Shown here piece by piece: positions 1,167-55,716 of a DNA stretch of 64,000 nucleotides. The notes under the pieces are model-generated. The model did not search any database. It was not told the origin of the DNA and saw only the letters and a list, made by a program, of their open reading frames with translations. The stretch is from an uncultured bacterium (GTDB lineage Bacteria; Actinomycetota; Coriobacteriia; Coriobacteriales; Coriobacteriaceae), in NCBI GenBank assembly GCA_905214435.1, contig CAJMMA010000005.1:3525-67524 (forward strand). The letters run 5' to 3'. The translations under genes and the position numbers were made by a program. How positions within the stretch are numbered: position 1 is the first letter of the stretch; each line of letters begins with the position of its first letter.

Positions 1167-1168
1167 CC

Positions 1169-1708: not shown

Positions 1709-1862
1709 GTAAGAAGCTCATCCCAAAGCATCACCCCAACCTAGGGCGCCACGCATCCCAAAGTGTCAACAACAGCTCAACGCCCCTATCAGCAACAAGC
1801 CCCTCCCATCCAAATTCAGATATATGTTGGGTTGCTTGCTCGAGCGCAGCAAAGATCCCGCA

Positions 1863-1987: not shown

Positions 1988-2008
1988 GGACAACTATGTA
2001 GCCTTCGA

Positions 2009-2740: not shown

Positions 2741-2789
2741 AAAACCTTATCTTTCTTGTCGGTTATAAACGATTCGTTTAAGCCGCGCA

Positions 2790-4067
2790 CTAGTGCTGTG
2801 CGACAACAACACCCAGGCCATCGGGGATGACGGCGACCTTGGCATCGGCACCCTTCATCTCAAAGGCGAGCTTGAGCGCTTCCTCGATAGTGTTGACCGG
2901 CGTCATGTGCATATCCTTGAGCATCTGGTGATCGCACAGGTCGGTGACCATGATCACAGGGTGATGCGCCAGGATGCGGGCAAAGATCTGGCTCGTCCAC
3001 TGATCGGGCAGGGTCTCGTCCTTAGGACGATCGATGCAGGCGCGCTCAAACTCTGCCGGATCGTTGTCGGCGATGTTGTGATAGAAGCCCTCGCCGCCGT
3101 GACCGTCGGCACAACCGGCGACGTCGATGATCACGCCGCCCTCGGGAAGCGTGGCCTCGGCAGCGCACATGCCCTTCACAGCCTGATAGATGTTCTGATC
3201 GAGGGGGTAGCCGCCGTTAGTGGTAATGGCGATCTCGCACTCGACGGGCTCAACGCCGGCAAGGCTCTTCACGAACTCGCAGCCAGCCTCGTGCGCCTTG
3301 TGGATGTCGCCGGCAAAGGAGCCAATGACCTCGTGCTTGCCGTTGAGCACCACGTTGAGCACAAAGGCAAGGTGAGCCATCTCGGCGGCGGCAAACATGT
3401 CCTCGCTCACGTGGTTGTGGCACAGGTTGCCGGCACGCGAGTGGGAATCGTTCACAAACTGACCGTTGTGGTTGTACATGATGGTCTTGTAGCTGGCGAT
3501 GCCAGGCAGGACGGACTTGCGGCTACCAGAGAAACCGGCAAAGAAGTGCGGCTCAATAAAGCCCTCGGCAAGCAGCAGATCGCAATCGGCCGCAATCTTG
3601 TTGATGATGCACTCGCCACCAGAAGGCAGGGTGCCGATCTTTTTCATCATGCTGTCGTCAGTCGCGACGTGCATAACGATTTCTTCGTTGGCAACGATCT
3701 CCTCGCCGTACTTGTTGACGAGCTCCTCGTGCGTCGACGGACGATGCATACCCGTAGCAACCAGAATGCGAACGCGCGCCTCAGGCGCAGCGGAATGGAT
3801 GTGATGCAGCAGAATAGGCATCGTCACACGCGAGGGAACGGGACGCGTATGATCGGAGCTAATGATGACAATATCCTTCTTGCCAGCACAAAGCTCCTCG
3901 AGCGAAGGTGAGCCGTAAGGGTTGGCAAGCGACTCCTCCACCAGCTCTTCCTGCGATTTCGTGGTCTTAAACTCGTTTTGATGACCTTCCATCACACCCG
4001 CGAAGTTCTTATCCTCGAGTTCCAGATGCAACGTCTTGTGGTCAAACGGCAGTTCACATTCAAACAA
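2790..4067 (-). CDS. larA: Nickel-dependent lactate racemase LarA (DUF2088 family)
   Basis: Contains SSDHTRPVPS, SRKSVLPGIA and CADGHGGEGF blocks typical of LarA. The track ORF extends to 4145. I place the start at in-frame TTG 4067 (LFECELPFDHKTLHLELEDKNFAG...), preceded by aaaGGAAGAGGgcgctcgtca, giving about 425 aa like known LarA. The start is uncertain. Confidence 0.85.
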   Translation of the reverse strand: MFECELPFDHKTLHLELEDKNFAGVMEGHQNEFKTTKSQEELVEESLANPYGSPSLEELCAGKKDIVIISSDHTRPVPSRVTMPILLHHIHSAAPEARVRILVATGMHRPSTHEELVNKYGEEIVANEEIVMHVATDDSMMKKIGTLPSGGECIINKIAADCDLLLAEGFIEPHFFAGFSGSRKSVLPGIASYKTIMYNHNGQFVNDSHSRAGNLCHNHVSEDMFAAAEMAHLAFVLNVVLNGKHEVIGSFAGDIHKAHEAGCEFVKSLAGVEPVECEIAITTNGGYPLDQNIYQAVKGMCAAEATLPEGGVIIDVAGCADGHGGEGFYHNIADNDPAEFERACIDRPKDETLPDQWTSQIFARILAHHPVIMVTDLCDHQMLKDMHMTPVNTIEEALKLAFEMKGADAKVAVIPDGLGVVVAQH

Positions 4068-4282
4068 TGACGAGCGCCCTCTTCCTTTCAACTGACACAC
4101 TAGATAAACCGTTGGAAGGATACGCCGCTCACCGAAAAACACCACCGTCTACCGACTCATTAACACAACGTTCATATTTGACCCACAACAAAACGGCCGC
4201 GATCCCAAAAAGGACCGCGGCCGGAACAGTCGTAAGGCGAGAAGCGCCAAATGCATCTCAATCCCAATCGATAAGACGCGAG

Positions 4283-30456: not shown

Positions 30457-30480
30457 GAGGGTTCGAATCCCCAGCCGCCA
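30457..30480 (+). repeat. Inverted partial copy of the tRNA-Ser 3' end (T-loop, T-stem, acceptor, CCA)
   Basis: GAGGGTTCGAATCCCCAGCCGCCA on the plus strand, compared with GGGGTTCGAATCCCCAGCTCTCCGCCA for the 3' end of the minus-strand tRNA-Ser 50 nt away. The two match apart from a 4-nt gap and the first stem bases. Confidence 0.7.
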
Positions 30481-33155: not shown

Positions 33156-33279
33156 GGAATATCACCCTGATCGGTCGCTTGAAGAAGGAGTGGTCGCGAA
33201 TAAGTCGCGACATCTACTCGGAATCTTACACGAGTTGACAGGAAATCGTCCCTTTGGACGAAAGCACTCAAGCTGGCGC

Positions 33280-33462
33280 AAAAGAAAAGCCCCCGTTGCC
33301 GGGAGCTTTAATCTCAAATGGTGCGGCGTATAGGATTCCGCGCATCCGCTGCGCGGATCCGCACCGGCTTCGCCCGCCTGCCGGCGTGCTCGCCCGCGGG
33401 CTAAAAACGCTCCGCGTTTTCTTTACGCCCGCGCCTCGACCGAGGTTCGAATCCATGCGGTG
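33280..33462 (-). repeat. T-loop-junction element, copy A: duplicated terminator plus a 20-nt tRNA-Arg 3' end, fused in the T-loop to a ~100-nt three-hairpin GC-rich core and an inverted T-loop motif
   Basis: 33280-33338 is identical to 33470-33528 (terminator plus tggtgcggcgtataggattc). After ggattc the tRNA body is replaced by cgcgcatccgctgcgcggatccgcaccggcttcgcccgcctgccggcg...ctaaaaacgctccgcgttttc...gcgcctcgaccgaGGTTCGAATCCatgcggtg. Confidence 0.8.
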
Positions 33463-33508
33463 TTTACGTAAAAGAAAAGCCCCCGTTGCCGGGAGCTTTA
33501 ATCTCAAA

Positions 33509-33585
33509 TGGTGCGGCGTATAGGATTCGAACCTATGACGTTCTGATTCGTAGTCAGACCCTCTATCCAGCTGAGGTAACGCCGC
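33509..33585 (-). tRNA. tRNA-Arg (anticodon ACG), copy 1
   Basis: Minus-strand reading: GCGGCGT-TA-CCTC-AGCTGGATA-GAGG-G-TCTGA-CTACGAA-TCAGA-ACGTC-ATAGG-TTCGAAT-CCTAT-ACGCCGC-A-CCA. Perfect cloverleaf, 77 nt. Confidence 0.92.
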
Positions 33586-33597
33586 GACTTGTTGATT

Positions 33598-33626
33598 ATT
33601 ATGCACAGGGACTGAATAATGGTCAA
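33598..33626 (-). promoter_or_regulatory. Sigma-70-type promoter for tRNA-Arg copy 1
   Basis: Minus-strand reading: TTGACC-17 nt-CATAAT, ending 12 nt before the mature 5' end. Equivalent TTGACC-17-CATAAT lies at 33864-33892 for copy 2, and TTGACT-17-TTTTAT at 34296-34324 for copy 3. Confidence 0.55.
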
Positions 33627-33774
33627 GCATTTTTTCAAAAAAAGTTATCGAATTTGATTTTTACTCATTTGATGCAGTCGATCGACTCGATACTTTCAAA
33701 CACGGCGAAAGCAACTCCTCAAGTATGTCGACATATAAGAAAAGCCTCCGTTACCGGAGGCTTTAAAGTTCAGT

Positions 33775-33851
33775 TGGTGCGGCGTATAGGATTCGAACCT
33801 ATGACGTTCTGATTCGTAGTCAGACCCTCTATCCAGCTGAGGTAACGCCGC
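33775..33851 (-). tRNA. tRNA-Arg (anticodon ACG), copy 2
   Basis: 77 nt identical to copy 1, with its own terminator (aaaagcctccgttaccggaggcttt) and promoter. Confidence 0.92.
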
Positions 33852-33975
33852 AACGCACGGATTATTATGCACGCGAGCCCCCGATGGGTCAAGCGACAAT
33901 TAGAAAAAATTTTATGGAGTGATAATTAAGTTGTTCGTGCCTCGACCGAGGTTCGAATCCATGCGGCGTCCACCT

Positions 33976-34159
33976 AAAAGAAAAGCCCCCGTTGCCGGAG
34001 GCTTTCAATTTCGGTTGGTGCGGCGTATAGGATTCCGCGCATCCGCTGCGCGGATCCGCACCGGCTTCGCCCGCCTGCCGGCGGACTCGCCCGCTCGCTA
34101 AAAACGCTCCGCGTTTTCTTGACGCTCGCGCCTCGACCGAGGTTCGAATCCATGCGGTG
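33976..34159 (-). repeat. T-loop-junction element, copy D (same architecture as copy A)
   Basis: Terminator plus truncated tRNA-Arg 3' end (34016-34035), core 34036-34138, and inverted T-loop motif 34139-34159. By my count the core differs from copy A at about six positions. A further isolated inverted T-loop motif lies at 33948-33968. Confidence 0.8.
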
Positions 34160-34206
34160 GCGGCATAAAAGAAAAGCCCCCGTTGCCGGAGGCTTTCAAT
34201 TTCAAT

Positions 34207-34283
34207 TGGTGCGGCGTATAGGATTCGAACCTATGACGTTCTGATTCGTAGTCAGACCCTCTATCCAGCTGAGGTAACGCCGC
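34207..34283 (-). tRNA. tRNA-Arg (anticodon ACG), copy 3
   Basis: 77 nt identical to copies 1 and 2. Confidence 0.92.
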
Positions 34284-34360
34284 AGCGCAAGACATATAAA
34301 ACCACTTTAGCTTATTGGAGTCAAGCACAATTTCAAACTTTTTTGTGGAACGCAGTCTTG

Positions 34361-38959: not shown

Positions 38960-39143
38960 AAAAAGAGCTCCCATTGCTGGGAGCTCTTTCAATCCATGGT
39001 GCGGGCGAAAGGACGTCCGCCTATCCGCTGCGCGGATCCGCACCGGCTTCGCCCGCCTGCCGGCGGACTCGCCAGCTCGCTAAAAACGCTCCGCGTTTTC
39101 TTGACGCTCGCTCCTTCACAGGTTCAAGTCCCTGCGATGGGCA
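38960..39143 (-). repeat. T-loop-junction element at tRNA-Leu
   Basis: Duplicated terminator (agagctcccattgctgggagctct) plus an 18-nt tRNA-Leu 3' end (38997-39014, tggtgcgggcgaaaggac). This is joined in the T-loop to a core (39015-39117) whose central ~80 nt match the Arg-associated core with one substitution. It ends in acaGGTTCAAGTCCctgcgatgggca (39118-39143). Confidence 0.8.
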
Positions 39144-39185
39144 CATAACAAAAAAGCCCCCATTGCTGGGAGCTCTTTCAATCAA

Positions 39186-44811: not shown

Positions 44812-45062
44812 CACTGCCCCCTTCGGATCATGCAGGTCGAACCCGCATCGTATTGCATAGGATAAGTATCGTTTTGAGTATACCCACGTGTGCGGACAGG
44901 CGACCGAACGGTCTGTAAAGCGACGCGAAAGTGGGAGGAATGTCTGGGAGCAGACGAGCTCGGGATGGTGCGATGAGGTGTGTACGCGCGCCAGAGGCAG
45001 GCACCGGAAAGCATGTCCCGTTCTATCGCTCAATAATGGGGCGCATTTTCCGCAGAACCCTA

Positions 45063-45250
45063 CATAAAAGAAAAGGACCCCTTTGCAGAGGTCCTAGTCA
45101 ATTCAAGGTGGCGGGGAAGGGAATCGCGTCCGCGCGCTGCGCGGACGGACCGCTGCGGCGCTTACGCGCCTTGCGAGCTGCGCTGGCAAACGCTTACGCG
45201 TTTACTCAGCTCCGCGCCCTCACGGGGTTCGATTCCATGTGGGGGCTGCA
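45063..45250 (-). repeat. T-loop-junction element at tRNA-Phe (diverged core, same architecture)
   Basis: 45063-45125 is identical to 45249-45311 (terminator plus ggtggcggggaagggaatc). After gggaatc the tRNA body is replaced by a ~97-nt core with three hairpins (TCCGCGC-gct-GCGCGGA, GGCGC-ttac-GCGCC, AAACGC-ttac-GCGTTT). It ends in cacGGGGTTCGATTCCatgtgggggctgca. Confidence 0.8.
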
Positions 45251-45292
45251 TAAAAGAAAAGGACCCCTTTGCAGAGGTCCTAGTCAATTCAA

Positions 45293-45367
<75 letters not shown>

Positions 45368-45399
45368 ATTTGAGGTGTGCCTTGTTTCAAGGCTTGATT

Positions 45400-45427
45400 A
45401 GTATAACCAAGGACGCGTTCCGGTCAA
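45400..45427 (-). promoter_or_regulatory. Sigma-70-type promoter for tRNA-Phe
   Basis: Minus-strand reading: TTGACC-16 nt-TATACT, about 32 nt upstream of the mature 5' end. Confidence 0.55.
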
Positions 45428-45490
45428 CCGAGAATTTTAAAAAAGTTTTTGAGCACAGCCTCGGTTCTTTAAATCGGCACGTCAGAGGCA

Positions 45491-45778
45491 TCAGCCGGCA
45501 GCAAGAAGTTTTTCGCTCAGAGCCGCACGGGCAAACTCACTTGGCGTCATCCCCTCGGCAGCCGCCCGTCGACGAATGGCCTCCTTCATTCCCAGAGGAA
45601 TCTTGACCGACAGCGTTGCCGTCCCCTCACCCGAGAGTGGGGGCCGTCCATGCACGATCCCACCAACGGTGTGTTCGCCATCCGGAAACTCTCCGCGCTC
45701 GTACGACTCGCACCACGCGTCAATCATTTCATCCGTTACAACCTGACCATTAGCGGCCGTATACGTCTTGCCCATCAT
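45491..45778 (-). CDS. Ribbon-helix-helix (CopG-like) antitoxin-type protein
   Basis: 95 aa. The C-terminal ...GRPPLSGEGTATLSVKIPLGMKEAIRRRAAAEGMTPSEFARAALSEKL is a beta-strand plus two helices, an RHH pattern common in actinobacterial antitoxins. It overlaps the upstream small gene by 29 nt. Confidence 0.6.
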   Translation of the reverse strand: MMGKTYTAANGQVVTDEMIDAWCESYERGEFPDGEHTVGGIVHGRPPLSGEGTATLSVKIPLGMKEAIRRRAAAEGMTPSEFARAALSEKLLAAG

Positions 45779-46931: not shown

Positions 46932-49096
46932 TACGACCCACCGCCCAGAGCGCCAACCAGCGTGGCGACATCGACGGTGAGCGGGATGGAGCCGCCGCCG
47001 GGCAGAGGAATCTCCGCAAGCGTGAACACCGTACCGCTGATGGTGCGTTCGACTTGATATTCCAACGCCTCGCAAAGCGCCTTGGGATCGGTCACGCCCA
47101 ACGGAATACTTCGCAGTTTGTCTTGCGCTTGAGAGAGACCAGCAATGTCAGACCCCGGGCTCTTAATGACGTTGGCGGAATCAGTCAGCACCGGCTTTCG
47201 CAGGCGCAAGTCGCACGGTTCCAAACCCAGCGCCGCCACGGACGCCGAAACGGTATCGCCGAGCCACGATGCGATGGAGCCCAACGCGCCGCTGCCCCCT
47301 CCTAGGCCTTTAATCATCTCGTCCATAAGTTCGTCGGCCGAACCTTGGATGTCTCCGTATCCCACAAGCAGCCGTCCCCAGACATCCATGACGCCATCGA
47401 GTACGCCGGCAACGCCACCCGAGCGCTCCTTCAATGTCGAGAAAAATCGCGAAAGCACGTTGTTTTGCGCCGTCGCCTCATCGGGCGCCAGCACCGCGGC
47501 AGAGATGGCACCGCGATCGCCAAGCCTGACTGCCGTGTTAAACGAAGAGTTGAGCTCATCGGGGCTCGAGATGGCACCCGAAACCGCAAAGGCAACCACG
47601 CCGTTGCGACCGGGCGGAGCGATACGCGGACGCTCGCCCGAAAGCGCTTTAATGGCCTGGTCAAACGCATTGCTCGCACGGTCGGCCTCATCCTCGGTCT
47701 GACGCATGAGCTCAAGCTCTTTGTTCCGACATGTGACGTATTCCTCCAAGGCCTTTTTGAACTCGTCGAAGTGATATTCGAAGCCGTTTTCGATAGAGGT
47801 TGAAGGCGCCGCAACAGCACCAAGCGACAAAACGCCAAAATGGCATTTGCTGCATTTATCCTGTCCATCGTAATCGGCAACCGAAGCAAATCCGCTCGGC
47901 GTCCCTTTCTTATAGTTAGGGCAGGTCGTCCCGTAATGCAGATACGCCTTGTCATCGTTCACGCTCGTCGGCCACACCGCATCGGTATAGAGTTCCGTCG
48001 CCCGAACCTCATCAGAGTTGCGCGGCAGCAGCGGAATATAGGAGGAAACCCTGTCTCCGTTCTCGGTTATATGCGCCCGATCGACCTCCGCGCTCGCATA
48101 GGTATAAAACGCCTTACGCGCCGCAGACTCTGCCTTCATCTCGACACTCGAGCCGTGGGGCTTCTCATTTGTCAGACGCCAATGGTAGTAGTCCTTCGCG
48201 CGATCAAGGGCAACTTGGGGCTCCCACGTAACGCTCGATGAGTAATGCGGATTTTGAACACCGGAGAGATCCGTTAGGCTTTTCGCACGCTCCCACATGC
48301 AAGAACAGCTGCCGACCGAGCCCTTGTCAGACCCACCACAATCCGCCAGCCAAGCACGCTCTTTAGCCTTCGCCGTGTCCTCAGAAGCCTTCCGCAGCTC
48401 CTCGGCCGCACACTCTAAATCATCTGATGTGTCTTTAATGGCATCGGTCGAGATCTCGGACCCCTCGAGCGCAGCGAAGTCAGACTCGGATGTCCTGGGC
48501 ACGGCAAGCGCCGTACCGGTATAGGTCACACTATCGGTATCCTGCGCCGACACCGCCTGCGTGGCACGCGCGGCGATCAGATACGGCAGAGCCGTCTCGA
48601 TTTTCTGTAAGCCTTCCGATGCGCTTTTGGCAAACTTGTTGCGCGTTTTAATGATCTCAATCCCGGTGTCGACCATATTGCCGGCAACCGGCTCGGCACC
48701 CGGGATGAGGATGGCGACCAGGCCCGTCCCGATCGTGGCAAACCCCGCCAGCCCCAGACTCAAGATGCTCGCATCAACCACCGTGGCAGCCGTGTGATAG
48801 GACGACACTACGTTGGCACCCGCCAGCGCGCCACTATCAGCCGCCACCTGAGTATCCCCGGCACGCGACATGCTCCATATCGCCGCGGTCGACGAAAACA
48901 ACAATGTGAGCACCACTAGGATGACCACGGCAGAAGAAAGCGTGGTATAGGCGCCGTCTTCGATAAACAGATCGACACCGGCTCGACCCATAAAGCCGCC
49001 TCGTTTGCGGAGAGCGCCTGGTCGACGGCGGGCCGCAAACCCTTGCGTCACCCGCAACAGGCAGCGCCTAATCCCATGCAGCAATCCACGGATCAT
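46931..49096 (-). CDS. Large TadG-like (Tad_N domain) pilus-associated protein
   Basis: N-terminal ...DGAYTTLSSAVVILVVLTLLFSSTAAIWSMSRAGDTQVAADSGALAGANVV matches the TadE/G-like N-terminal signature (TM helix then QxAADxAALAGA). About 720 aa with a Cys-containing central part. The start is ambiguous (ATG 49096 or ATG 48991, both with SD-like sequences). Confidence 0.7.
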   Translation of the reverse strand: MIRGLLHGIRRCLLRVTQGFAARRRPGALRKRGGFMGRAGVDLFIEDGAYTTLSSAVVILVVLTLLFSSTAAIWSMSRAGDTQVAADSGALAGANVVSSYHTAATVVDASILSLGLAGFATIGTGLVAILIPGAEPVAGNMVDTGIEIIKTRNKFAKSASEGLQKIETALPYLIAARATQAVSAQDTDSVTYTGTALAVPRTSESDFAALEGSEISTDAIKDTSDDLECAAEELRKASEDTAKAKERAWLADCGGSDKGSVGSCSCMWERAKSLTDLSGVQNPHYSSSVTWEPQVALDRAKDYYHWRLTNEKPHGSSVEMKAESAARKAFYTYASAEVDRAHITENGDRVSSYIPLLPRNSDEVRATELYTDAVWPTSVNDDKAYLHYGTTCPNYKKGTPSGFASVADYDGQDKCSKCHFGVLSLGAVAAPSTSIENGFEYHFDEFKKALEEYVTCRNKELELMRQTEDEADRASNAFDQAIKALSGERPRIAPPGRNGVVAFAVSGAISSPDELNSSFNTAVRLGDRGAISAAVLAPDEATAQNNVLSRFFSTLKERSGGVAGVLDGVMDVWGRLLVGYGDIQGSADELMDEMIKGLGGGSGALGSIASWLGDTVSASVAALGLEPCDLRLRKPVLTDSANVIKSPGSDIAGLSQAQDKLRSIPLGVTDPKALCEALEYQVERTISGTVFTLAEIPLPGGGSIPLTVDVATLVGALGGGS

Positions 49097-49604
49097 AATC
49101 TCCCTCCAGCCATTCGGGACGCGATTGATACGAGACATCGACCTTGAGCTCAACGTAGCCGCCCTCGGCGGTACCACCCATAGCCTGCGCAAACGCACCG
49201 ATCACAGGCAACGGCTTGACCTCGCCGGAAACGGACACGGACGAGACGCCACCCGTACCGGCCCGGCCAAGCTCGATATCCCACGACAACGGCCCGCCGG
49301 CATGAAAGATCGAAACGTTGGGCACTGCGGCAAGTCGGCGGCGGGTGAACTCCTTAAGATCGTCGTCCTCCGCCGTCGTCGTGGTCATGAGCCGCGCGGT
49401 CTCGGCGGCGGCAGACTCCATGACCGCGCGCGTATAGAGCAGGCACACCGGTTGCAGCGCGAGAAGGATGAGTGTCAGAAACGTCGGCAGCAAAAAAGCG
49501 GCCTCGACCGTAGACTGCGCCCGGTCCTCGCGCGCGGCATCAATACAACGCGATGTCCTTAGCGGCCGCAGCGGCGTCGATAACCGACGTCGAGGCAACG
49601 CCAT
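49068..49604 (-). CDS. TadE-like protein
   Basis: ...REDRAQSTVEAAFLLPTFLTLILLALQPVCLLYTRAVMESAAAE... is a TadE N-terminal motif. The nearest in-frame ATG (49604, MALPRRRLSTPLRPL...) overlaps the preceding pilin gene by 65 nt. No ATG/GTG/TTG lies closer to the motif, so the start is uncertain. Confidence 0.65.
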   Translation of the reverse strand: MALPRRRLSTPLRPLRTSRCIDAAREDRAQSTVEAAFLLPTFLTLILLALQPVCLLYTRAVMESAAAETARLMTTTTAEDDDLKEFTRRRLAAVPNVSIFHAGGPLSWDIELGRAGTGGVSSVSVSGEVKPLPVIGAFAQAMGGTAEGGYVELKVDVSYQSRPEWLEGDYDPWIAAWD

Positions 49605-49758
49605 GGGATGCCGCCCGCTCAACCAGCGCCGCCAAGCGCCCATCGGTGCCGGCACGCCAAAGTCCCGCGATCGCCAGCACGATCGATAACAGCGCCACCG
49701 TGACGATGGCGTATTCGACCGTCGCCTGGGCAGATTCCTCACGCAGGACATCATGCAT
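49540..49758 (-). CDS. Second Flp-type prepilin-like protein (72 aa)
   Basis: MHDVLREESAQATVEYAIVTVALLSIVLAIAGLW...: charged leader, then a TVEY plus hydrophobic helix as in Flp pilins. The residue before the motif is Ala rather than Gly. Confidence 0.6.
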   Translation of the reverse strand: MHDVLREESAQATVEYAIVTVALLSIVLAIAGLWRAGTDGRLAALVERAASHGVASTSVIDAAAAAKDIALY

Positions 49759-49759
49759 T

Positions 49760-50323
49760 TCACGATCCCTCCTTTGAGTCCGTTGCCTGCGGGCTCAGGC
49801 GCACGGCGCGCAGACGACACGAAGCATCGCCAGCATCCGCGGCAATTGTCACCATATCGACCCAGCCGCGTTCGTCGCGCACGATGGCGCCCCACACGTT
49901 TCCCTTGATGTCGAGATAGCCGCTCAGAGCAAGTTGCGCCGTGGGTACCTCGCGATAGGCACGCAGCATATCCGCCGCCGCTTCGGTCATCGGTCGGTCC
50001 TCGGACCATGCAAGCCGGACCGCAATCGCGTTGCCCTCAGGCGAATCCGTCGCAGTGCCAGACCGCTTGTCGAGCGTCCGCAGAAAGGTTTGCGCCGTGA
50101 CAGCGACATCCGAATCGTCCGCATCTCGCATCTCATCTTTTTGAGACGCCACCGCCGAATCTGAGCCCAAATCGGAGGCGGTCCCAGGACGCTGCTGCCG
50201 CGCGGCGTTAAGCCCCCAAAGCACCGCCGCTATCGCCACGGTCAGGCAAGCAAACACCAGCAGCACCCCGATGGGGCGCTCGCCCTCTACAGGCTGTTGA
50301 TGCCCTCGCTGATAGCGTTCCAT
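49760..50323 (-). CDS. Membrane-anchored hypothetical protein inside the tad locus
   Basis: 187 aa with one N-terminal TM (IGVLLVFACLTVAIAAVLWGL) followed by a soluble domain. It overlaps the flp 3' end by 37 nt. Confidence 0.5.
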   Translation of the reverse strand: MERYQRGHQQPVEGERPIGVLLVFACLTVAIAAVLWGLNAARQQRPGTASDLGSDSAVASQKDEMRDADDSDVAVTAQTFLRTLDKRSGTATDSPEGNAIAVRLAWSEDRPMTEAAADMLRAYREVPTAQLALSGYLDIKGNVWGAIVRDERGWVDMVTIAADAGDASCRLRAVRLSPQATDSKEGS

Positions 50324-50520
50324 AGATCTTGGACCTTGCCCTTAAATGCGACGATGGCGATAATCGCGATCACCACGAGCACGCCGACCAAGATGGCATA
50401 CTCGGTGGTACCCTGTGCACTCTCCTCCTGCAATAGTTCCTTGGCGCGCTGACGAACATGTGCCGCCCGGCAAAACGCCCAGCCCTGGACCTTGCCAGCA
50501 GCGTCAGTCATCGTGTTCAT
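50287..50520 (-). CDS. flp: Flp-family type IVb pilin precursor
   Basis: ...EESAQG/TTEYAILVGVLVVIAIIAIVAF... fits the Flp motif G/XXXXEY followed by a hydrophobic helix. 77 aa. Confidence 0.8.
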   Translation of the reverse strand: MNTMTDAAGKVQGWAFCRAAHVRQRAKELLQEESAQGTTEYAILVGVLVVIAIIAIVAFKGKVQDLWNAISEGINSL

Positions 50521-50530
50521 GTATTCCTCC

Positions 50531-51172
50531 CTACATCATCCCGCCTGCTCCCAGCAGCGGGCCCAATATGGACAGAAGCAACGCCGGCAAGATGAGCGTG
50601 CCGGTGGGAATCAGCAGCTTGACGGGTGCACGCTCGATCTCGCGCTCGACCGCGGCGCGATGAGCCGCACGGATCTCGCGACTTTGAGCGGCCAGCGTCT
50701 CGGCAAGTGGGGCACCCAGGGCGAGCGCCTGCCCCACCGTGATGGCAAAGGTCTCGAGCGCTCGCACGTCCAGGTCGCGCGCGGCGGCCAACAACTCGTC
50801 CTCACGCGTGCCCACGCCCACCTGCCACGCCATGCAGGCGCGCTCAAGGCGAAGAGCCAGCACTGACCGGCGGTTGGCGCAGAAAATCTCAAGCGCCGCA
50901 TCAAACGAAAGACCGGCCGAAAGACCCAAGCGCACAACATCGATCATCTCGGACACTTCGCCGAGCGACACTCGCGCCGGGCCGCCCGCTCCAACCGCGC
51001 CCTTCACTCGCGCGGTCAGAGCATCGACCACCGAGCGACCCGCGGCAGCGACCAGCACCGCCTCGCGCTTGCAGGCCCCTGCGACCTTGCGTGCATCCGC
51101 CCGATCCAACCCCGTCGCGACAAATACGCTCAGGGCGCACAGGCAAGCCGCAACTGCAACCGGGGCGCTCAT
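50531..51172 (-). CDS. tadC: TadC-like inner-membrane platform protein (T2SSF family)
   Basis: Start ATG 51172 overlaps the tadB stop (ATGA). MSAPVAVAACLCALSVFVATGL..., C-terminal ...ERAPVKLLIPTGTLILPALLLSILGPLL typical of TadB/C. Confidence 0.75.
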   Translation of the reverse strand: MSAPVAVAACLCALSVFVATGLDRADARKVAGACKREAVLVAAAGRSVVDALTARVKGAVGAGGPARVSLGEVSEMIDVVRLGLSAGLSFDAALEIFCANRRSVLALRLERACMAWQVGVGTREDELLAAARDLDVRALETFAITVGQALALGAPLAETLAAQSREIRAAHRAAVEREIERAPVKLLIPTGTLILPALLLSILGPLLGAGGMM

Positions 51173-52095
51173 AGCTCCACCCGCATAATGCGCCGGATAA
51201 CCACCAGGGCAACGGCGTTGAGGGCAAGACCCAGCACCACAGCGCCCGCGCCGGCAGGCGTCGCAAGACCGCGACGAAAATCTGCCGAAAGCAGCGCCAA
51301 CACCGCGCACATGCCCGCCGGCATCGCCGCGACCATATGCGCAGACATGCGAGCCTGCGACGTCTTAACATCCAGGCGGCGCTTGAGCTCAATGCGCTCC
51401 CCCACCATGCTCGACGCCTCGGACAGTAAGTCGGCAAGCGGAGCGCCGGTGCGCTGAGACACCTTAAGCGCCAAGGTCACAAGCGAAAGACCGGGGGCGT
51501 CGATACGCACGAGCAAGTCATCGAGCGCGTCGGTCGCCGAGATGCCGCAATCGATCGCCGCCGCCACCCGCAAAAACTCGTTATGCACTGGCTCTTGCGC
51601 ATGAGCGCCCACAAAGCGCATGCCCTGGGCCAGCGAATGTCCCGAGGCAAGCGACATGGAAAGTGCGGTAAACGCCTCGGGCATTGCCTCTTCTGCATCG
51701 TGTTGCTCGCGCCGGCTCTCAAAGCCATCCCGAGCGGCACCAACGGCAAACGGAGCAACAAGTCCCAAGGCAAATCCGAGGGGCGATAACGACACCATCG
51801 TTAGTAAAACGCAGCAGACACCGCTCGATAGCAGCAGAAACGCCAAACATCTCGAAGCATCCTCGATCACGAGGCCAAGGCGATGCGCCGGAGCCAGCGA
51901 TGCCCACGAACGGGCGATCTTTTTCAGCAGATCGTTTTCCACCAGCTCACGCGGCAGCTTCTCTGCCACCGTCTCGAGCGCCTGACGTGCCAGCTCCGCC
52001 GGCGGTACCTGCGGCACACGAGGTTCCGCCCCGCACGCCGTCGCGACAGAAAGCCCTGCCAAGCCCCCTACGACGAGGGGCACAGCGATCTCCAT
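51169..52095 (-). CDS. tadB: TadB-like inner-membrane platform protein (T2SSF family)
   Basis: 308 aa with TM segments at both ends and a central cytoplasmic helical domain. ...SQARMSAHMVAAMPAGMCAVLALL... is typical of TadB. Confidence 0.75.
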   Translation of the reverse strand: MEIAVPLVVGGLAGLSVATACGAEPRVPQVPPAELARQALETVAEKLPRELVENDLLKKIARSWASLAPAHRLGLVIEDASRCLAFLLLSSGVCCVLLTMVSLSPLGFALGLVAPFAVGAARDGFESRREQHDAEEAMPEAFTALSMSLASGHSLAQGMRFVGAHAQEPVHNEFLRVAAAIDCGISATDALDDLLVRIDAPGLSLVTLALKVSQRTGAPLADLLSEASSMVGERIELKRRLDVKTSQARMSAHMVAAMPAGMCAVLALLSADFRRGLATPAGAGAVVLGLALNAVALVVIRRIMRVEL

Positions 52096-53396
52096 TCGTC
52101 CACCTCCTCTTGTGTGAGCGTCCCCGACCGCAGGCCTTCTGCGATAAACGGCGGCTCGCGGTCAAGCGTCCAGGTGCGCTCGGCGGCATCGAACGTCACA
52201 TAGCGCTCGAGCTCTACGCCGCCCGATGCGGCGCGTCGCACCCCCGAATACGAGGAGACGAAGCGCCTGCCATCGGCGTGGCGCTCGGACATCACGATAC
52301 CGTCGAGCGCCATGGCAATCTGCTCCTCGATGAGCTCACTCGGCAGGTCGATGCCATAACGTGCAAGCAACGTCAGACGCACCACGGTCTCCTGTTCTGA
52401 ACCCGCATGAAGTGTGGTGAGCGACCCGTCGTGGCCCGTGTTCATGGCCTGCAACATGTCGCAGCACTCGGCACCGCGCACCTCGCCCACCACGATGCGG
52501 TCGGGGCGCATGCGCAGGGCATTAGTTACCAGGTCGCGGATCGTCACCGCGCCTTCACCCTCAATTGAAGCCTCGCGCGCCTCTAGGCGCACCACGTGCG
52601 GATGATGCGCAAACTTGAGCTCGGCAGAGTCCTCGATCGTCACGATGCGCTCGCCGGTGGAAATCTCACATGACAACGCGTTGAGCAGGGTGGTCTTACC
52701 AGATCCCGTGCCTCCCGCAACCGCCAGGTCCTGTCGCAGCGACACCGCGCACGACAGCAGCTGCGCATACCAAAGCGGCAGCGACCCCAGCCCCACAAGC
52801 TCGTCCAGCGAGCAGATACGGTCCGAGAACTTTCGGATGGTGAGAATCGGTCCGTCAATCGCCACAGGCGGAATCACCGCGTTGACGCGATAGCCCGTTT
52901 TGAGGCGGGCGTTGACGATGGGGCTGCGCTCGTCGATACGGCGGCCAAGTGGCGAGATGATGCGGTCGATAAGCACACGGATCTGTTCATCATCCTCAAA
53001 CGCATGCTCGATGGGGTACAAAACGCCGCCGCGTTCAAAGAAAGCCGAGCGGCAGCCGTTGATCATGATCTCGGTAACGGTGTCGTCCTCGATGAGCGGC
53101 TGCAACGGCCCCAAGCCCACCACGTCATCCAAAATCTCGTCGATGATGGTTTCGCGCTCGGGCGTCGCGAGATCGGTCGGCTCCTCAACATTGAGCGCCG
53201 CCTCCACCGCAGGACGCAATTCCGAGCGGGCAAGTGCCGGGTCGATATAGGCGCTGATACGCGCCACTTCGTCGTAACCCATGCGGTCCATCACGGCGCG
53301 CTTGGTGCGTCGTTTCACCGCGCGGCGACGCCCCGCATCTACAGGCGCTGCCGCCGCTGCAGCGCCGGCAGCCTTAATCCTCGTTTGCAGGCTCAT
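52068..53396 (-). CDS. tadA: CpaF/TadA secretion ATPase
   Basis: Walker [17 protein letters not shown], Asp box, Walker B and His box (...[11 protein letters not shown]...) of the VirB11/CpaF family. Confidence 0.9.
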
Positions 53397-55045
53397 CGCT
53401 GATCACCCTCACGCGACCAGGGAAGGCGGATACGCGGGCGTTCGGTACGCGTTGCACGGTCGGCGACCATATCGCTCCAAGGGCCGACGGCGCACCCCAG
53501 TTCCACGAGCATCTCGCGCGTGGCCTCGCGCATGCTAGTCGCAAAAGCGCTGGTCTGCCCCACCGCCTCGTCAGCGCGCCCAAACGCCATGAGCGCGGCG
53601 AGATCCTGCCCGCCATCGGCGATACGAATCTTGGAGCTCAACGCACAGGCAATCTCAAAGCGCATGGCGACGTCCTCGTCTGCCCCGCGCGCACCGAACC
53701 GGTTGAACACGGCGCTCATGCGCGTGCGCGGCACACCTACTCGACTTGCCAGTTCGATGACGCGCGACGCCGATGTCGCGGACGACACCGCCGCATCGCC
53801 AACGACCAGGCAACGGTCGCTCGCCGCCACCGCAGCCGCCACGGCGTCGCCCCAAAAGACCGAGGTATCGATAAAGACCACGTCGGATTCGCGACGCAGA
53901 ACATCAAGCAGTAGCTCCACCGGACGCGCCATGAGCTCGGCTTGCTCGGGCGCCGCGACGGGACCCCAGAGCGTAACGCCCGGCGCCACGCGCATCGATG
54001 TGGCTACGATATCCGGCTCGGTGAGCGTGCCCGCCGCCGACGGCTCGATAAGTGCCGCCATATCGCGCGGAGCATCGACGCCTAACAAGTCGTAAAGGTT
54101 TCCAAACATCAGGTCCAGGTCGAGCACGGCGGCACGCAAGCCCAACAGCGACGATGTGTGTGCCATGGCGGCAACGATCGTCGACTTGCCGCAACCGCCC
54201 GAACCCGAAATAGCGCAGATGACCGGAGCTCGATGCGGCGGAGCGGCAGCGTCTGCCGGCGGCATCGGAGGCGGCGGGGCGGGCGTCGGTGGCAGCGCAC
54301 CCGTCTCCCCCGCCGCAACCACACGCTGCGTCCAAGCCGGCATGGCAGCTTGTTCGGTCTGCGAGGCAGGCTCGTTCTGTACAATCTGCTCATGCTGCAT
54401 CAGCGACAACTCGCCGCACCCGGCAAAGCCCTCAACTTCATCGAGTTCATCCGCCAGATTCACGCCGTGCACGTATCCCATATCTACAGCCGGGGAATCG
54501 CCAGCATGCTGCGCCGGCCCTCCAGCGTCATCGTATACAAGGGGGTTCCGGGGGCGCCGACCATGCTCGGCTTCCGCTTTTCCATAATCATCAACACGCG
54601 GGCCTCTTGTAGCGCGAGGCGCCCCGGGTTCCCTATCAACAAAAGCATCGGGCTCAATCGTCATGCTCCGATCGGAATCAACCGCTCCCTCGCCCGCGCG
54701 CCCGTTGCCGCATATACTGTGTGCAGCGATGACCTCGGTCGCCCCCGCGCGAAACAGCCCCTCGATATCCGACGGATCGAGCGCTTCTATCAACACGACC
54801 ACGCGACTCACGCGGCCTTCGGCCGTCAGGCGCGCAACAGTCTTGCGTACATCTTCGGTATCAAACAGAGACGCCGCGATGATGGCAGCCCCGCGGCGCG
54901 ACGGAAACGCCCGCGCCATGGAAACCAGCCCGTCCAGGTCACCCACGCGAAGCACCTGTGCACCCACATCACGGCCCTCGACTTCCCGCTGCAACAGCCC
55001 GTAATCGCCGCACGCGCAGCACGCAAGCCAGATCGCCTTCATCAC
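53393..55045 (-). CDS. TadZ/CpaE-like ParA/MinD-family ATPase with an N-terminal receiver-like domain and a long low-complexity linker
   Basis: C-terminal half has a deviant Walker A (ISGSGGCGKSTIVAAMA) and MinD-like blocks. The N-terminal ~110 aa resemble the atypical receiver domain of TadZ. Between them lies an Asp/Pro/Ala-rich linker. Confidence 0.75.
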   Translation of the reverse strand: MMKAIWLACCACGDYGLLQREVEGRDVGAQVLRVGDLDGLVSMARAFPSRRGAAIIAASLFDTEDVRKTVARLTAEGRVSRVVVLIEALDPSDIEGLFRAGATEVIAAHSICGNGRAGEGAVDSDRSMTIEPDAFVDREPGAPRATRGPRVDDYGKAEAEHGRRPRNPLVYDDAGGPAQHAGDSPAVDMGYVHGVNLADELDEVEGFAGCGELSLMQHEQIVQNEPASQTEQAAMPAWTQRVVAAGETGALPPTPAPPPPMPPADAAAPPHRAPVICAISGSGGCGKSTIVAAMAHTSSLLGLRAAVLDLDLMFGNLYDLLGVDAPRDMAALIEPSAAGTLTEPDIVATSMRVAPGVTLWGPVAAPEQAELMARPVELLLDVLRRESDVVFIDTSVFWGDAVAAAVAASDRCLVVGDAAVSSATSASRVIELASRVGVPRTRMSAVFNRFGARGADEDVAMRFEIACALSSKIRIADGGQDLAALMAFGRADEAVGQTSAFATSMREATREMLVELGCAVGPWSDMVADRATRTERPRIRLPWSREGDQR

Positions 55046-55716
55046 TCGTCGCCTCCGCTCTTTTTGCCGCGCGCCGTGGCGGGAATCGTCAAGCTGACCG
55101 TTCCCTTGCCCGAGGCTCCCAGCAGTTCCTTGACGTCTTCGGGGTCAGCCGCCAGCGTCACCCATTCGATCTTGCCCTCGCGCGTGGCACCGGAATCCTC
55201 ACTGGTATCGATCACGTGCGCGCCGCACAGCCGATCGGTCACGCCGTCCTTTTGCACGTACACGTCCACGTAGCTGCCCACGCCCGTGGCACCGCCGACC
55301 GAGTGCTCGGCATCGACCGCCACCGAAACGGCAACCTTGCCCTTAGGCACCTCGAGCTTGCGGCTCTCGGCCTTGGTGTAGACATTGCAGATCACGGCGT
55401 TTTTGGGAATACGCGAAGTCGTCACGTCGCCGCGCACCTGGCGCAGCTCGGTCGCTGCGTCACGCGGCAGCAGGCTCGTCAGCCATTCCTGGGTTATGAC
55501 ATTGGTCTCATCGAGGGTCTCGCCCACATCGATATCGCGCGCCGCGACGCAAACCTCGACGCGATCGCCACCGTACTTGGCCAAGGTCTCAGCCTGGACC
55601 TGTTCGGCTTGCGAGCGGATCGACGAGCCGTAAACCATGCAGAGCAGAGCAGCGAGCACGCCCGCGACCAGACTGATGGCGATGCGCTTGCTCTTGTTCA
55701 CGGCCGCTCCTCTCAT
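55042..55716 (-). CDS. cpaB: CpaB/RcpC-like Flp pilus assembly protein (SAF domain)
   Basis: N-terminal TM (IAISLVAGVLAALLCMV), then ...VCVAARDIDVGETLDETNV... (SAF-like) and a beta-rich C-terminus. First gene of the tad operon, with an ATGA overlap onto tadZ. Confidence 0.7.
   Translation of the reverse strand: MRGAAVNKSKRIAISLVAGVLAALLCMVYGSSIRSQAEQVQAETLAKYGGDRVEVCVAARDIDVGETLDETNVITQEWLTSLLPRDAATELRQVRGDVTTSRIPKNAVICNVYTKAESRKLEVPKGKVAVSVAVDAEHSVGGATGVGSYVDVYVQKDGVTDRLCGAHVIDTSEDSGATREGKIEWVTLAADPEDVKELLGASGKGTVSLTIPATARGKKSGGDE

Follow-up and report, generated by a model that had tools for sequence, protein, structure and literature searches.

Gene-less, hairpin-rich cassettes built around pieces of the adjacent tRNA recur behind tRNA genes of gut bacteria

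The tRNA-Phe gene of the window (the whole 64-kb stretch of DNA analysed here) is followed by a direct repeat enclosing a hairpin-rich core, and the unit so formed belongs to a family of ~ 190 bp cassettes without an ORF, which is widespread behind tRNA genes of gut bacteria and apparently undescribed so far. We have high confidence in the family, its anatomy and a fold that is specific to the tRNA-sense strand. As to what the unit does, the best explanation overall was an integrative cassette acting as folded single-stranded DNA, to which we give an even chance. A full-text literature search returned no description of the element, and the available part of the HMP2 structured-RNA supplement contained no Collinsella entry with such neighbours.

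Anatomy of the cassette behind tRNA-Phe

An earlier, sequence-only reading had described positions 45063–45125 as an exact duplicate of 45249–45311. The repeat is real and slightly longer, with 45060–45126 matching 45246–45312 over 67 nt at 99% identity. It is made up of an intrinsic terminator and the last 20 nt of tRNA-Phe, and the ~ 100 nt between its two copies contain the three hairpins that had been proposed. All features below lie on the − strand unless stated otherwise. The intact tRNA-Phe(GAA) gene (45293..45367; tRNA detection, 67 bits) has a sigma-70-type promoter (TTGACC-16-TATACT, 45400..45427), which is the sole promoter-like site in 44900–45500; no promoter for the cassette was detected in the same interval, and the cassette’s own terminator sits upstream of the cassette.

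Repeat comparison placed the proximal copy, consisting of tRNA-Phe nt 56–75, the trailer and terminator 1 (stem 45260–45281, with a T tract after it), at 45246..45312. A spacer (45240..45249), evolving at a neutral-like rate (~ 70% identity, 41 species), leads from terminator 1 to an antisense T-arm block, T′ (45224..45239, sense CATGGAATCGAACCCC), which provides the 5′ strand of both helix P1 and helix P1a. Positions 45225–45236 of T′ are the exact antisense of tRNA-Phe nt 51–62, and the inverted Phe-type T-loop motif pointed out earlier was recovered here as GGTTCGATTCC on the + strand at 45226–45236. The mini-hairpin P1a (CCC-GUGA-GGG, 45217..45226) has a stem made of T-stem nt 51–53 and their complement. 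It is followed by P2 (45177..45215), which is bipartite (GCUG/CAGC plus GUAAACGC/GCGUUUGC, apex GCGUAAGC), by P3 (45151..45175), which combines CGC/GCG with GGCGC/GCGCC under the apex GCGUAAGC, and by P4 (45128..45146), in which GUCCGCGC pairs with GCGCGGAC (TCCGCGC/GCGCGGA). All three hairpins of the sequence-only reading are present, corresponding in their original order to P4, the inner part of P3 (GGCGC/GCGCC) and the inner part of P2 (AAACGC/GCGTTT); the complete fold, however, has five helices. The sequence of P4 differs between all tRNA types, with pairing kept.

The tRNA-Phe 3′ end (nt 56–75) recurs at 45107..45126, where its nt 56–62 form the 3′ strand of the closing helix P1, and the distal trailer with terminator 2 (stem 45074–45095) was assigned to 45060..45106 by repeat comparison. 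Judging from Arg2 and Ser, where filled sites can be set against their empty orthologues, terminator 2 would be the resident one at Phe. No tRNA or tRNA pseudogene (ARAGORN/RF00005-type cloverleaf) was called within 45060–45250, the only call being the intact tRNA-Phe. Scanning the whole window with Rfam 15 at the gathering threshold returned tRNAs only, and E-value scans (up to 10) of 44950–45400 and 33200–34320 gave only chance-level matches (≤ 28 bits), all well short of the family thresholds.

Distribution, layout and site occupancy

Paralogous cassettes, likewise on the − strand, were found in the same window behind tRNA-Arg copy 1 (33339..33470) and tRNA-Leu(CAG) (39016..39150), both of subfamily A, and behind tRNA-Arg copy 3 (34036..34167), where an extra solo antisense T arm lies at 33936–33975. 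tRNA-Ser(GCT) has a solo antisense T arm without a core (30457..30480), a site that carries a full cassette in other Collinsella genomes. A direct repeat of the tRNA 3′ end alongside an intact tRNA was also seen at Arg, Leu and Ser. The pattern GGTTCRANTCC had 12 matches in the window versus 0.21 expected; its six + strand copies are each 79–85 nt away from the T loop of a − strand tRNA gene, and of the six such genes five have copies, Arg3 two of them, and Arg2 has none. The pattern AAACGC-N3-4-GCGTTT was confined to the four full elements (4 versus 0.01 expected). Pfam scans of 50 of the 52 window ORFs detected no recombinase, integrase, transposase or reverse transcriptase domains; ORFs assigned to a Pfam family were housekeeping, two-component, transporter or Tad-pilus genes, and 15 ORFs were without a Pfam family.

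The Phe core had been thought to share only short words with the Arg/Leu cores, a view contradicted by a global identity of 67% (z of 5–6), which makes them homologous; the Arg/Leu type represents subfamily A, and the Phe core is a member of a second subfamily. The family was present in at least 117 loci of species-representative genomes, almost all of them Collinsella. A metagenome scan gave 120 loci with unchanged layout, next to tRNA-Lys, Val, Gly(CCC), Gly(GCC), Glu, Ala, His, Leu(CAA), a second Ser and others. Collectively, cassettes adjoin at least 12 tRNA species in two phyla. A Val copy was found in a C. aerofaciens replicon (PLSDB), and the His copy (L211) resides on a contig of 46% GC whose DnaX is closest to Oscillospiraceae/Clostridia proteins. 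The sequence-only reading had missed how broad the family is, its cassette-like behaviour, and that T-loop motif and flanks are in every case copies of local tRNA sequence.

Every copy shares one layout, is co-oriented with its tRNA and ends at a terminator. In the tRNA sense, a trailer and terminator now serving the tRNA are followed by a freely evolving spacer, by T′ as an exact 12–18 nt antisense of the local T arm (nt 51 to 62–67), by a C(GNNA)G mini-hairpin whose stem consists of T-stem nt 51–53 and their complement, by hairpins P2–P4, by the last 18–21 nt of the tRNA again and, finally, by the resident terminator. An exact antisense match of T′ of at least 8 nt (mode 12 nt) was located within 117 nt upstream in 199 of 206 unique units; the loop part of T′, which reads TCGAA in 165 units and TTGAA in 38, agrees with the T loop of the local tRNA. 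The junction between the core and the tRNA fragment varies inside the T loop (nt 55–59), falling at 55|56 for Phe, Ala, Glu, Leu(CAA) and His, at 56|57 for Arg, Lys and X, and at 58|59 for Ser, Leu, Val and Gly. At some loci the repeat stops at or just past the terminator T tract; at some Leu loci it extends ~ 10 nt beyond it.

Site occupancy varied at Ser, Arg and Leu, and tRNA-Phe was occupied in 45 of 45 loci. The Arg2 site is empty in the window and filled in locus L011, where the window-type terminator is distal and a different terminator is proximal. The Ser site carries a solo T′ only in the window and is filled in loci L024 and L030, again with differing proximal and distal terminators. 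Since the terminators differ at both sites, the terminator travels with the cassette and is not copied from the target. Tandem arrays of one to three units were seen behind tRNA-Arg (e.g. L030, and L103 with three), and L131 is a deletion chimera of Arg and Leu cores.

As for carriage of the core by phages, pattern scans of IMG/VR yielded only host flank beside a prophage (L119), and for plasmids, a PLSDB search yielded only a Collinsella replicon. An autonomous, full-size relative with an integrase was not found among the loci, in the viral pattern scans or in the plasmid searches. Three candidate parents were considered and rejected: in L090 a diverged core start runs into a host TM2-domain protein gene without an integrase, L148 is a shortened copy followed by unrelated DNA, and the large-serine-recombinase prophage of L119 occupies the 3′ end of tRNA-Lys upstream of the cassette and is not part of it.

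Fold, covariation and constraint

The predicted fold comprises five helices (the closing helix P1, then P1a, P2, P3 and P4), with T′ and the duplicated tRNA end pairing as P1 to close a five-helix junction, on the tRNA-sense strand only. When 15 family types were folded singly by minimum energy, most gave this layout, which bears out the proposal that Phe and Arg/Leu elements are related, with sequence diverged and hairpin order kept. That the structured strand is the − strand, the tRNA sense, and that a closing helix joins the inverted T-loop motif to the duplicated tRNA end were additional features, absent from that proposal.

For the Phe unit, the − strand reached −68.8 kcal/mol compared with −53.5 ± 3.7 kcal/mol for dinucleotide shuffles (z = −4.14; 0 of 200 shuffles were as stable), so its hairpins are not generic GC-rich palindromes; the + strand gave z = −0.65. 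DNA energy parameters resulted in z = −3.81 for the − strand versus −1.71 for the + strand. Strand asymmetry was also evident in the pairs themselves, with 78 G·U cells (35 + 43) versus 8 A·C cells (3 + 5).

Homologues supported the fold through covariation. In subfamily A (Arg/Leu-type), 94.3% of cells were paired and 15 of 38 pairs showed compensatory double changes, giving a covariation score of 0.278 versus 0.110 in shuffled data (0 of 500 shuffles reached it) and 0.04–0.06 with partners slid. The Phe-type subfamily was 97.6% paired with 3 of 25 pairs covarying, the small number being due to its sequence being too conserved. Across 41 Collinsella species-representative genomes, identity was 96.9% in the Phe core and 95.4% in T′, versus 69.9% in the spacer and 72.9% in the flank. 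Covariation and constraint together uphold the earlier suggestion that a structure kept through sequence drift marks a functional RNA or DNA structure.

Two near-isoenergetic alternative folds were identified, one with a local T′ hairpin and the other with P1 + P1a. The Leu T′ hairpin seems, by eye, to covary. In many types the five T′ loop nucleotides are unpaired in the fold, yet they are always complementary to the local T loop.

Nearly every hairpin apex was a C(GNA)G triloop (35%) or a C(GNNA)G tetraloop, the latter also in the non-GNRA forms GGCA, GCCA and GACA; among the apical loops of 171 units, C[GGA]G, C[GAA]G, C[GCA]G, C[GGCA]G, C[GUAA]G and similar ones dominated. Mini-hairpin DNA of the GCGNAGC and GCGNNAGC type is known for its extraordinary stability and occurs at priming sites on single-stranded DNA (PMC13037366). 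The Phe copy carries GCGTAAGC at 45160–45167 and 45192–45199 on the − strand. No window-wide enrichment of GCGNAGC or GCGNNAGC words was observed (87 and 100 matches, at or below expectation), so that only their position at hairpin apices is informative. The − strand is the lagging-strand template, the + strand having a negative GC skew and 46 of the 52 ORFs lying on the − strand.

Candidate explanations and known systems

We consider it fairly probable that the unit is a mobile integrative cassette; that its active form is single-stranded DNA rather than RNA is a tentative assignment, with a chance a little short of even. As proposed here, a miniature, non-autonomous cassette would enter and exit via recombination in the repeated tRNA 3′ end, with a mobile intermediate that is probably a one-unit circle. 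Its active form would most likely be a folded single DNA strand, here the lagging-strand template, in which P1 and P1a may rebuild a duplex that resembles the attachment site in the T arm of the tRNA gene, similar to integron attC and CTX attP. The C(GNA)G/C(GNNA)G-capped hairpins P2–P4 could act as an accessory or priming structure, and the recombinase would be supplied in trans. If true, the tRNA genes of bacteria common in the human gut harbour an overlooked class of cassettes that have no genes and recognise their target via an exact antisense T-arm copy within a conserved single-strand fold, and the principle of a folded single-strand attachment site, so far associated with integrons and CTX-type phages, extends to tRNA genes. 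It would also point to a recombinase or guided enzyme, and account for the duplicated tRNA 3′ ends and double terminators that recur in genomes without being annotated.

Several observations sit less easily with such a cassette. A Phe site filled in every sampled genome, in single copy and at 97% identity, is more suggestive of a host function than of a selfish element; G·U-compatible pairs and GNRA-type loops fit RNA equally well; and complementarity of the T′ loop is not required by a model of attachment-site mimicry, being better explained by an antisense or guide role. How a cassette that reaches a new tRNA species would acquire a matching T′ and tRNA fragment finds no clean explanation in any mechanism simulated, be it Campbell integration of a unit circle, exchange of single strands, a hybrid cDNA or terminator fold-back. 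An origin of T′ from terminator fold-back, as the remains of a long palindrome, was discarded, the arms past the 12–18 nt block not being significantly complementary (terminator-centred palindrome test on 44 units of three T-arm types with 12-mer anchor offset; median z of 0.7, 18% above z = 2). Exchange on the T′ arm was dropped, as it would invert the core. Insertion of IS200/IS605 type 3′ of TTCGA was rejected because the loop nucleotides are absent beside the core, and a group I/II intron in the T loop for want of both a conserved splice-site nucleotide and an Rfam match.

The principal rival to the integrative cassette is a structured non-coding RNA, expressed either through transcription running past terminator 1 or from a promoter that escaped recognition, which we regard as possible, with a chance clearly below even. 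Its 5′ T′ would pair with the T arm of the cognate tRNA, in the precursor or the gene, and its 3′ end would correspond to the acceptor strand with CCA. Such an RNA could be a decoy or sponge for enzymes or toxins acting on tRNA 3′ ends, a read-through sensor in which the tRNA upstream and the fragment downstream are alternative partners of T′, or a guide and scaffold for a trans-encoded protein. The tRNA-sense-specific covarying fold with its 78 G·U versus 8 A·C cells, the constant co-orientation with the tRNA and terminator at the end, the strong sequence constraint and the tRNA-Phe site filled at 45 of 45 loci all speak for RNA, as do the two near-isoenergetic folds (local T′ hairpin, P1 + P1a) and T′ itself, a discrete exact antisense block whose unpaired loop part tracks the T loop and which is not left over from a longer palindrome. 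However, no promoter was detected, the only elements upstream being the cassette-borne strong terminator and a neutral spacer; the 35% of triloops and the many GNNA loops that are not GNRA follow the rule of stable DNA hairpins rather than that of RNA (PMC13037366); a housekeeping RNA would not usually vary in copy number, stand in tandem arrays or spread across phyla; and no Rfam family matched. An RNA, if confirmed, would be a new, widespread and strongly constrained one built from pieces of the neighbouring tRNA, with clear experimental handles in the cultivable species Collinsella aerofaciens. A related and unlikely alternative is that T′ and the core form a guide-plus-scaffold, of RNA or single-stranded DNA, programming a trans-acting protein onto the T arm of one tRNA or tRNA gene. 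The cassette would then be re-programmed by copying 12–18 nt of the local tRNA, and the tRNA 3′ end would be a homing product or spare part, an extension that we find equally doubtful; were it true, it would represent a new guided recombination or tRNA-targeting system that has spread between gut phyla.

Copying from RNA would be another route to such cassettes. A reverse transcriptase would copy the 3′ part of the terminated pre-tRNA, stall in the T loop and switch to core RNA, and the hybrid cDNA would enter the chromosome by homologous recombination at the tRNA gene; integration of hybrid cDNA of this kind was reportedly described by Chiang et al. in 1994 for the Neurospora Mauriceville retroplasmid. 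The variable T-loop junction does look like template switching rather than a fixed cleavage site, the repeat at several loci ends at or just after the T tract, as would the 3′ end of a pre-tRNA transcript, and the flanks always match the local tRNA. We nevertheless consider this origin quite improbable, given that no reverse transcriptase gene was seen among the window ORFs scanned, that proximal and distal terminators differ at Arg2 and Ser, that the antisense T′ block needs extra ad hoc steps and that some Leu repeats run ~ 10 nt past the T tract. Least probable by far, with a chance close to nil, are inert debris in the form of attL/attR scars of decayed prophages or islands, or chance GC-rich palindromes. 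tRNA 3′ ends are classical integration sites, which favours such scars, as does the L119 large-serine-recombinase prophage, which sits in the 3′ end of tRNA-Lys beside a cassette; the lack of window-wide enrichment of GCGNAGC/GCGNNAGC words points the same way. Against this, the core is 97% conserved versus 73% in the flanks, homologous cores occur at no fewer than 12 tRNAs in two phyla, pairs covary in a strand-specific fold, fold stability is far beyond that of shuffles, and no phage or plasmid copy of the core was obtained in the IMG/VR pattern scans or the PLSDB search. Debris is already refuted, for practical purposes, by conservation and covariation.

Among candidate structured nucleic acids known from comparative genomics, the cassette resembles GOLLD, ROOL and Collinsella-1; some such large structured RNAs lie near tRNAs (PMC5737381), and the Collinsella-1 motif comes from the same genus (PMC2864571). 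Unlike these, the cassette has no sequence or structure match in Rfam 15 at E up to 10 and contains pieces of the adjacent tRNA, as none of them does; it is also much smaller than GOLLD and ROOL. Identity with Collinsella-1 was ruled out, Rfam scans giving tRNAs only at threshold. Single-strand initiation signals (G4-type origins, plasmid ssiA) likewise place about three strand-specific hairpins with GCGNAGC/GCGNNAGC-type caps in ~ 100 nt (PMC13037366); those are replicon-borne, however, whereas the cassette is chromosomal and tRNA-linked, and priming is a proposal only. MITE/REP-type repeats (REP/BIME, ERIC, Correia, RUP) are similarly small, non-coding, hairpin-rich, multi-copy and non-autonomous, but the cassette is found strictly at one position of tRNA genes and is conserved across phyla. 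In contrast to MITEs, its inverted repeat (T′ versus the tRNA fragment) is target-derived and changes with the tRNA, its 18–21 nt repeat has a variable junction instead of being a short fixed target duplication, and no parent IS was found.

Closer parallels exist for the proposed integrative cassette. Integrative elements of tRNA genes and CIMEs are also bordered on both sides by the tRNA 3′ end, from T loop to CCA, in direct repeat, restore the tRNA intact and supply a terminator, undergo tandem accretion at one tRNA and vary in presence among strains. The cassette is, however, 100 to 1000 times smaller, with no full-size integrase-bearing relative found, its homologous cores serve many tRNAs, and it has a strand-specific covarying fold in place of double-stranded DNA arm sites. 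With IMEX of the CTX-phage type, which use a folded attP and XerCD at dif, it shares inverted half-sites ~ 100 nt apart on one strand, and potentially also their folding into a target-mimicking duplex and a host-supplied enzyme, both of which are proposals for the cassette. P1 and P1a reproduce the T-arm duplex on either side of the loop, P1a with only 3–5 bp. The target to be mimicked would be the tRNA T arm and not dif, and the cassette has 190 bp without genes or a known replicative form.

The fold is of attC type, in that an unpaired centre, UCGAA in whole or in part, lies between P1 and P1a on the tRNA-sense strand, and like integron attC it is a one-strand structural site consisting of an imperfect inverted repeat with two paired boxes and an unpaired centre. 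Integron cassettes, too, are without a recombinase gene and stand in tandem beside one fixed chromosomal site, with the newest unit adjoining that site and the folding strand being the lagging-strand template. The differences are that the fixed site is here a tRNA T arm and 3′ end rather than attI, that intI, a Pc promoter and a cassette ORF are missing, and that the GTTRRRY/RYYYAAC boxes of attC are replaced by local T-arm sequence (e.g. GGAATCG/CGATTCC), which differs per tRNA. Also unlike attC, the centre of the site holds ~ 95 nt of conserved hairpins, and one of the two repeat arms matches the target exactly, as a copy of it.

The unit behind tRNA-Phe and its relatives

At the tRNA-Phe(GAA) gene (45293–45367, − strand), a 67-nt direct repeat (45060–45126 versus 45246–45312, 99% identity) carries an intrinsic terminator, with identical stems at 45074–45095 and 45260–45281 on the − strand, and the last 20 nt of the tRNA. 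The three hairpins and the Phe T-loop motif (45226–45236, + strand) described by the sequence-only reading were found between the two repeat copies. Across the window, the T-loop motif GGTTCRANTCC had 12 matches against 0.21 expected; all six on the + strand lay 79–85 nt from T loops and served five of the six − strand tRNA genes, with two at the third tRNA-Arg(ACG) copy and none at the second. The hairpin AAACGC-N3-4-GCGTTT was confined to the four full elements (0.01 expected). The hairpins are also more than generic GC-rich palindromes: compared with dinucleotide shuffles, the − strand of the Phe unit had a stability z of −4.14 (0/200 shuffles) versus −0.65 for the + strand, and DNA energy parameters gave −3.81 versus −1.71. 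Chance is no explanation for the Phe repeat, the motif spacing or the fold stability. The sole promoter-like site in 44900–45500 is that of tRNA-Phe itself (45400–45427). The ORFs of 141 and 120 aa called mechanically over cassettes and tRNA genes (44931–45356, + strand; 33268–33630, − strand) are artefacts of GC-rich repeats, unfit for gene annotation.

The cores behind tRNA-Arg and tRNA-Leu are 88–94% identical to each other and 67% identical to the Phe core (z of 5–6 against shuffles), which makes the latter a homologue; it belongs to a second subfamily (B). The earlier view of a diverged relative keeping the hairpin order thus held, while its claim that only short words are shared did not.

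When one genome per species was scanned with an exact pattern, at least 117 loci were returned, nearly all in Collinsella. Among the matches listed, tRNA-Phe was occupied in 45/45 cases and tRNA-Leu(CAG) in most, the three tRNA-Arg(ACG) genes carried 0–3 tandem units apiece, and tRNA-Ser(GCT) was followed either by a complete unit, its core being a fourth variant, or by an antisense T arm alone. A looser pattern run on metagenome contigs added 120 loci, and among these the same layout was seen at tRNA-Lys(UUU), Val(UAC), Gly(CCC), Gly(GCC), Glu(UUC), Ala(UGC), His, Leu(CAA), another Ser and one or more further tRNAs, identified from visible anticodon loops with an ARAGORN check for the Val copy only. 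Since the Val copy is located in a Collinsella aerofaciens replicon, and the His copy (locus L211 of the scans) lies on a contig of 46% GC whose DnaX is closest to Oscillospiraceae/Clostridia proteins (50–55% identity), the family occurs in two phyla. Rfam holds no family matching the element, and a literature search found no description of it.

Anatomy of a unit and variation between sites

Read in the tRNA sense, an intact tRNA is followed by its trailer and terminator, a short spacer, an antisense T-arm block (T'), a mini-hairpin (P1a), the core hairpins P2–P4 and a second tRNA copy that runs from nt 56–59 to the tRNA end and again into trailer and terminator. T' is the exact antisense of tRNA nt 51 up to 62–67: in 199 of 206 unique units, its antisense matched the upstream 117 nt exactly over ≥8 nt (mode 12 nt). 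The loop part of T' (TCGAA, 165 units; TTGAA, 38 units) tracks the local T loop. The P1a stem, topped by a four-base loop, pairs the complement of nt 51–53 with nt 51–53 (CCC/GGG, or CCU/AGG in two tRNAs with A51). As read from the sequences, the junction between core and tRNA fragment falls at 55|56 in Phe, Ala, Glu, Leu(CAA) and His, at 56|57 in Arg, Lys and one unidentified tRNA, and at 58|59 in Ser, Leu, Val and Gly. Mean pairwise identity across 41 Collinsella species-representative genomes was 99.9% for the tRNA, 98–99% for the terminators, 95.4% for T' and 96.9% for the core, versus 69.9% for the spacer and 72.9% for the adjoining 60 nt of flank.

The tandem at 33509–34283 consists of three identical tRNA-Arg(ACG) genes with separate promoters and terminators. 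A cassette follows each of copies 1 and 3; copy 2 (33775–33851) is empty, its terminator (ACTGAACTTTAAAGCCTCCGGTAACGGAGGC...) leading into unique sequence. The orthologue of copy 2 in L011 has a unit, with the window-type terminator in the distal position beyond the duplicated tRNA end and a different one adjoining the tRNA. Behind tRNA-Ser(GCT), the window retains only an inverted T arm and a shortened acceptor end (30457–30480; GGGTTCGAATCCCCAGC-CGCCA), abutting the terminator of a neighbouring D-Ala-D-Ala carboxypeptidase gene, where other Collinsella genomes have the full cassette with the fourth core variant. Here too the terminator and spacer allele found in the window occupies the distal position in L024, with further such alleles shuffled among positions and genomes. 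The terminator positions in L011 and L024 indicate that the inserted piece consists of a tRNA 3' end, a new terminator, spacer, T', P1a and core, and the true flanking repeat is the last 18–21 nt of the tRNA. Units also occur in arrays of two or three, some T' remnants stand alone, and L131 is a deletion chimera of Arg and Leu cores. Among the 50 ORFs of the window that were scanned, none had a recombinase, transposase or reverse-transcriptase domain.

Fold, structured strand and possible mode of movement

Independent minimum-energy folds gave the same layout in most of 15 types. T' pairs with the duplicated tRNA fragment in a closing helix (P1) of 6–10 bp. Inside P1 lie P1a, the bipartite hairpins P2 (inner stem AAACGC/GCGUUU) and P3, and P4. 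All three hairpins of the earlier reading are present, as P4, inner P3 and inner P2; P1 and P1a complete the fold. Subfamily A (22 sequences: Arg, Leu, Ser, two Gly, Leu(CAA), His) had 94.3% paired cells and compensatory double changes at 15/38 pairs, with a covariation score of 0.278 against 0.110 in shuffles (0/500 reaching the observed value) and 0.04–0.06 when partners were slid. Subfamily B (39 sequences: Phe, Lys, Val and one unidentified tRNA) had 97.6% paired cells and a score of 0.075 (shuffles 0.021, 0/500; slid 0.000–0.016); double changes were limited to 3/25 pairs because the sequence is too conserved, and one of the three is a GU-to-UG flip occurring 16 times each way. P4 and the base of P2 differ wholly in sequence between subfamilies with pairing retained. 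The proposal that structure is kept through sequence drift was supported. G·U cells outnumbered A·C cells (35+43 versus 3+5) and the consensus fold was stabler in sense than antisense in 4/4 Collinsella types; the structure is a property of the tRNA-sense strand. In the Phe copy, a local T' hairpin (−68.8 kcal/mol) and P1 plus P1a (−68.2 kcal/mol) are mutually exclusive and nearly isoenergetic.

The strand asymmetry is compatible with both RNA and single-stranded DNA. We lean towards DNA as the active form because the cassette sets its own strong terminator upstream of itself and has no conserved promoter, because the structured strand is the lagging-strand template, and because copy-number polymorphism and cross-phylum spread suggest mobile DNA. 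In addition, the apical loops obey a mini-hairpin DNA rule and not the RNA GNRA rule: 35% are C(GNA)G triloops, and tetraloops are of the C(GNNA)G form, including GGCA, GCCA and GACA. Extraordinarily stable mini-hairpin DNAs, GCGNAGC and GCGNNAGC, are known from single-stranded DNA priming sites (PMC13037366). A structured RNA in an antisense, decoy or guide role is the less likely reading, kept in consideration by four observations: the loop portion of T', although unpaired in many types, agrees with the local T loop in every case; T' forms a discrete block, its origin as a relic of a terminator-centred palindrome being unsupported (median z 0.7); no mechanism worked through for the cassette cleanly re-creates T' and tRNA fragment on colonising a new tRNA; and tRNA-Phe was occupied in all genomes sampled. 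A guided-enzyme reading of the cassette appears improbable, and a retro-copy model, which accounts for the variable T-loop junction but not for the travelling terminator, similarly improbable.

For the favoured cassette of single-stranded DNA, P1 and P1a of the folded strand would rebuild the T-arm duplex on either side of the loop, and may thus mimic the attachment site in a tRNA gene, with integron attC and the folded attP of CTX phage as parallels. Exchange between the core|tRNA-fragment boundary and the T loop of a tRNA would yield exactly the observed product: tRNA, cassette tRNA end and terminator, T' and core, then resident tRNA end and terminator. In its workings the cassette most resembles integron cassettes, IMEX elements and tRNA-integrating elements without genes. 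However, it lacks defining features of each: it has no intI, attI or R boxes and no dif, no integrase-bearing relative was found, and it has neither element-encoded terminal repeats nor a short fixed target duplication. We therefore place it among structure-defined, non-autonomous integrative cassettes, with an appreciable chance that it lies further afield.

Other sequences at and around the cassettes

In L119 (5602–7100), the junction of a predicted prophage with a large serine recombinase as its terminal gene replaces the tRNA-Lys(UUU) 3' end (...GAGTCACCCGCCCACCA in place of ...GACGGCCCACCA) directly upstream of a Lys-type cassette; the recombinase ORF has no stop codon, so its reading frame continues through the cassette. 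Several Leu and Val cassettes (L076, L093, L100, L111, L189) have another small element, bounded by terminal inverted repeats (GGTCAAAAAGTGGCAAATATGAGTACTG...CAGTACTCATATTTGGCC), inserted beside or inside them; an IS lies within the Leu core of L114, and in L240 the Val cassette is followed by an IS1595 transposase gene. In the Gly(CCC) loci L136, L208, L209 and L239, the duplicated tRNA-Gly end is followed by ~90 nt of unrelated sequence and a partial second P3–P4 copy with an inverted P4 loop (GCTTCGC for GCGAAGC). In one genome (L090, 1756–2976), the interval from tRNA-Ser to the carboxypeptidase gene contains an ORF of 406 aa that is basic at its N-terminus and has a TM2-like membrane segment; a diverged remnant of the cassette 5' part lies upstream of this ORF.

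Elsewhere in the window, lactate racemase LarA and nickel-insertion protein LarC (249–4145) and, downstream of the tRNA region, a Tad/Flp-type pilus cluster (49068–55716; TadE, T2SSF, T2SSE, ParA-like ATPase, CpaB) have no connection to the cassette finding. L155, L165, L177 and L237 are chance matches of the metagenome pattern that share a conserved, apparently structured sequence unrelated to tRNA genes (CTTCGAACCAGGTGGTYGGGAGTTCGAC.AAACGCG..AGCGTTTTGG, followed by further hairpins).
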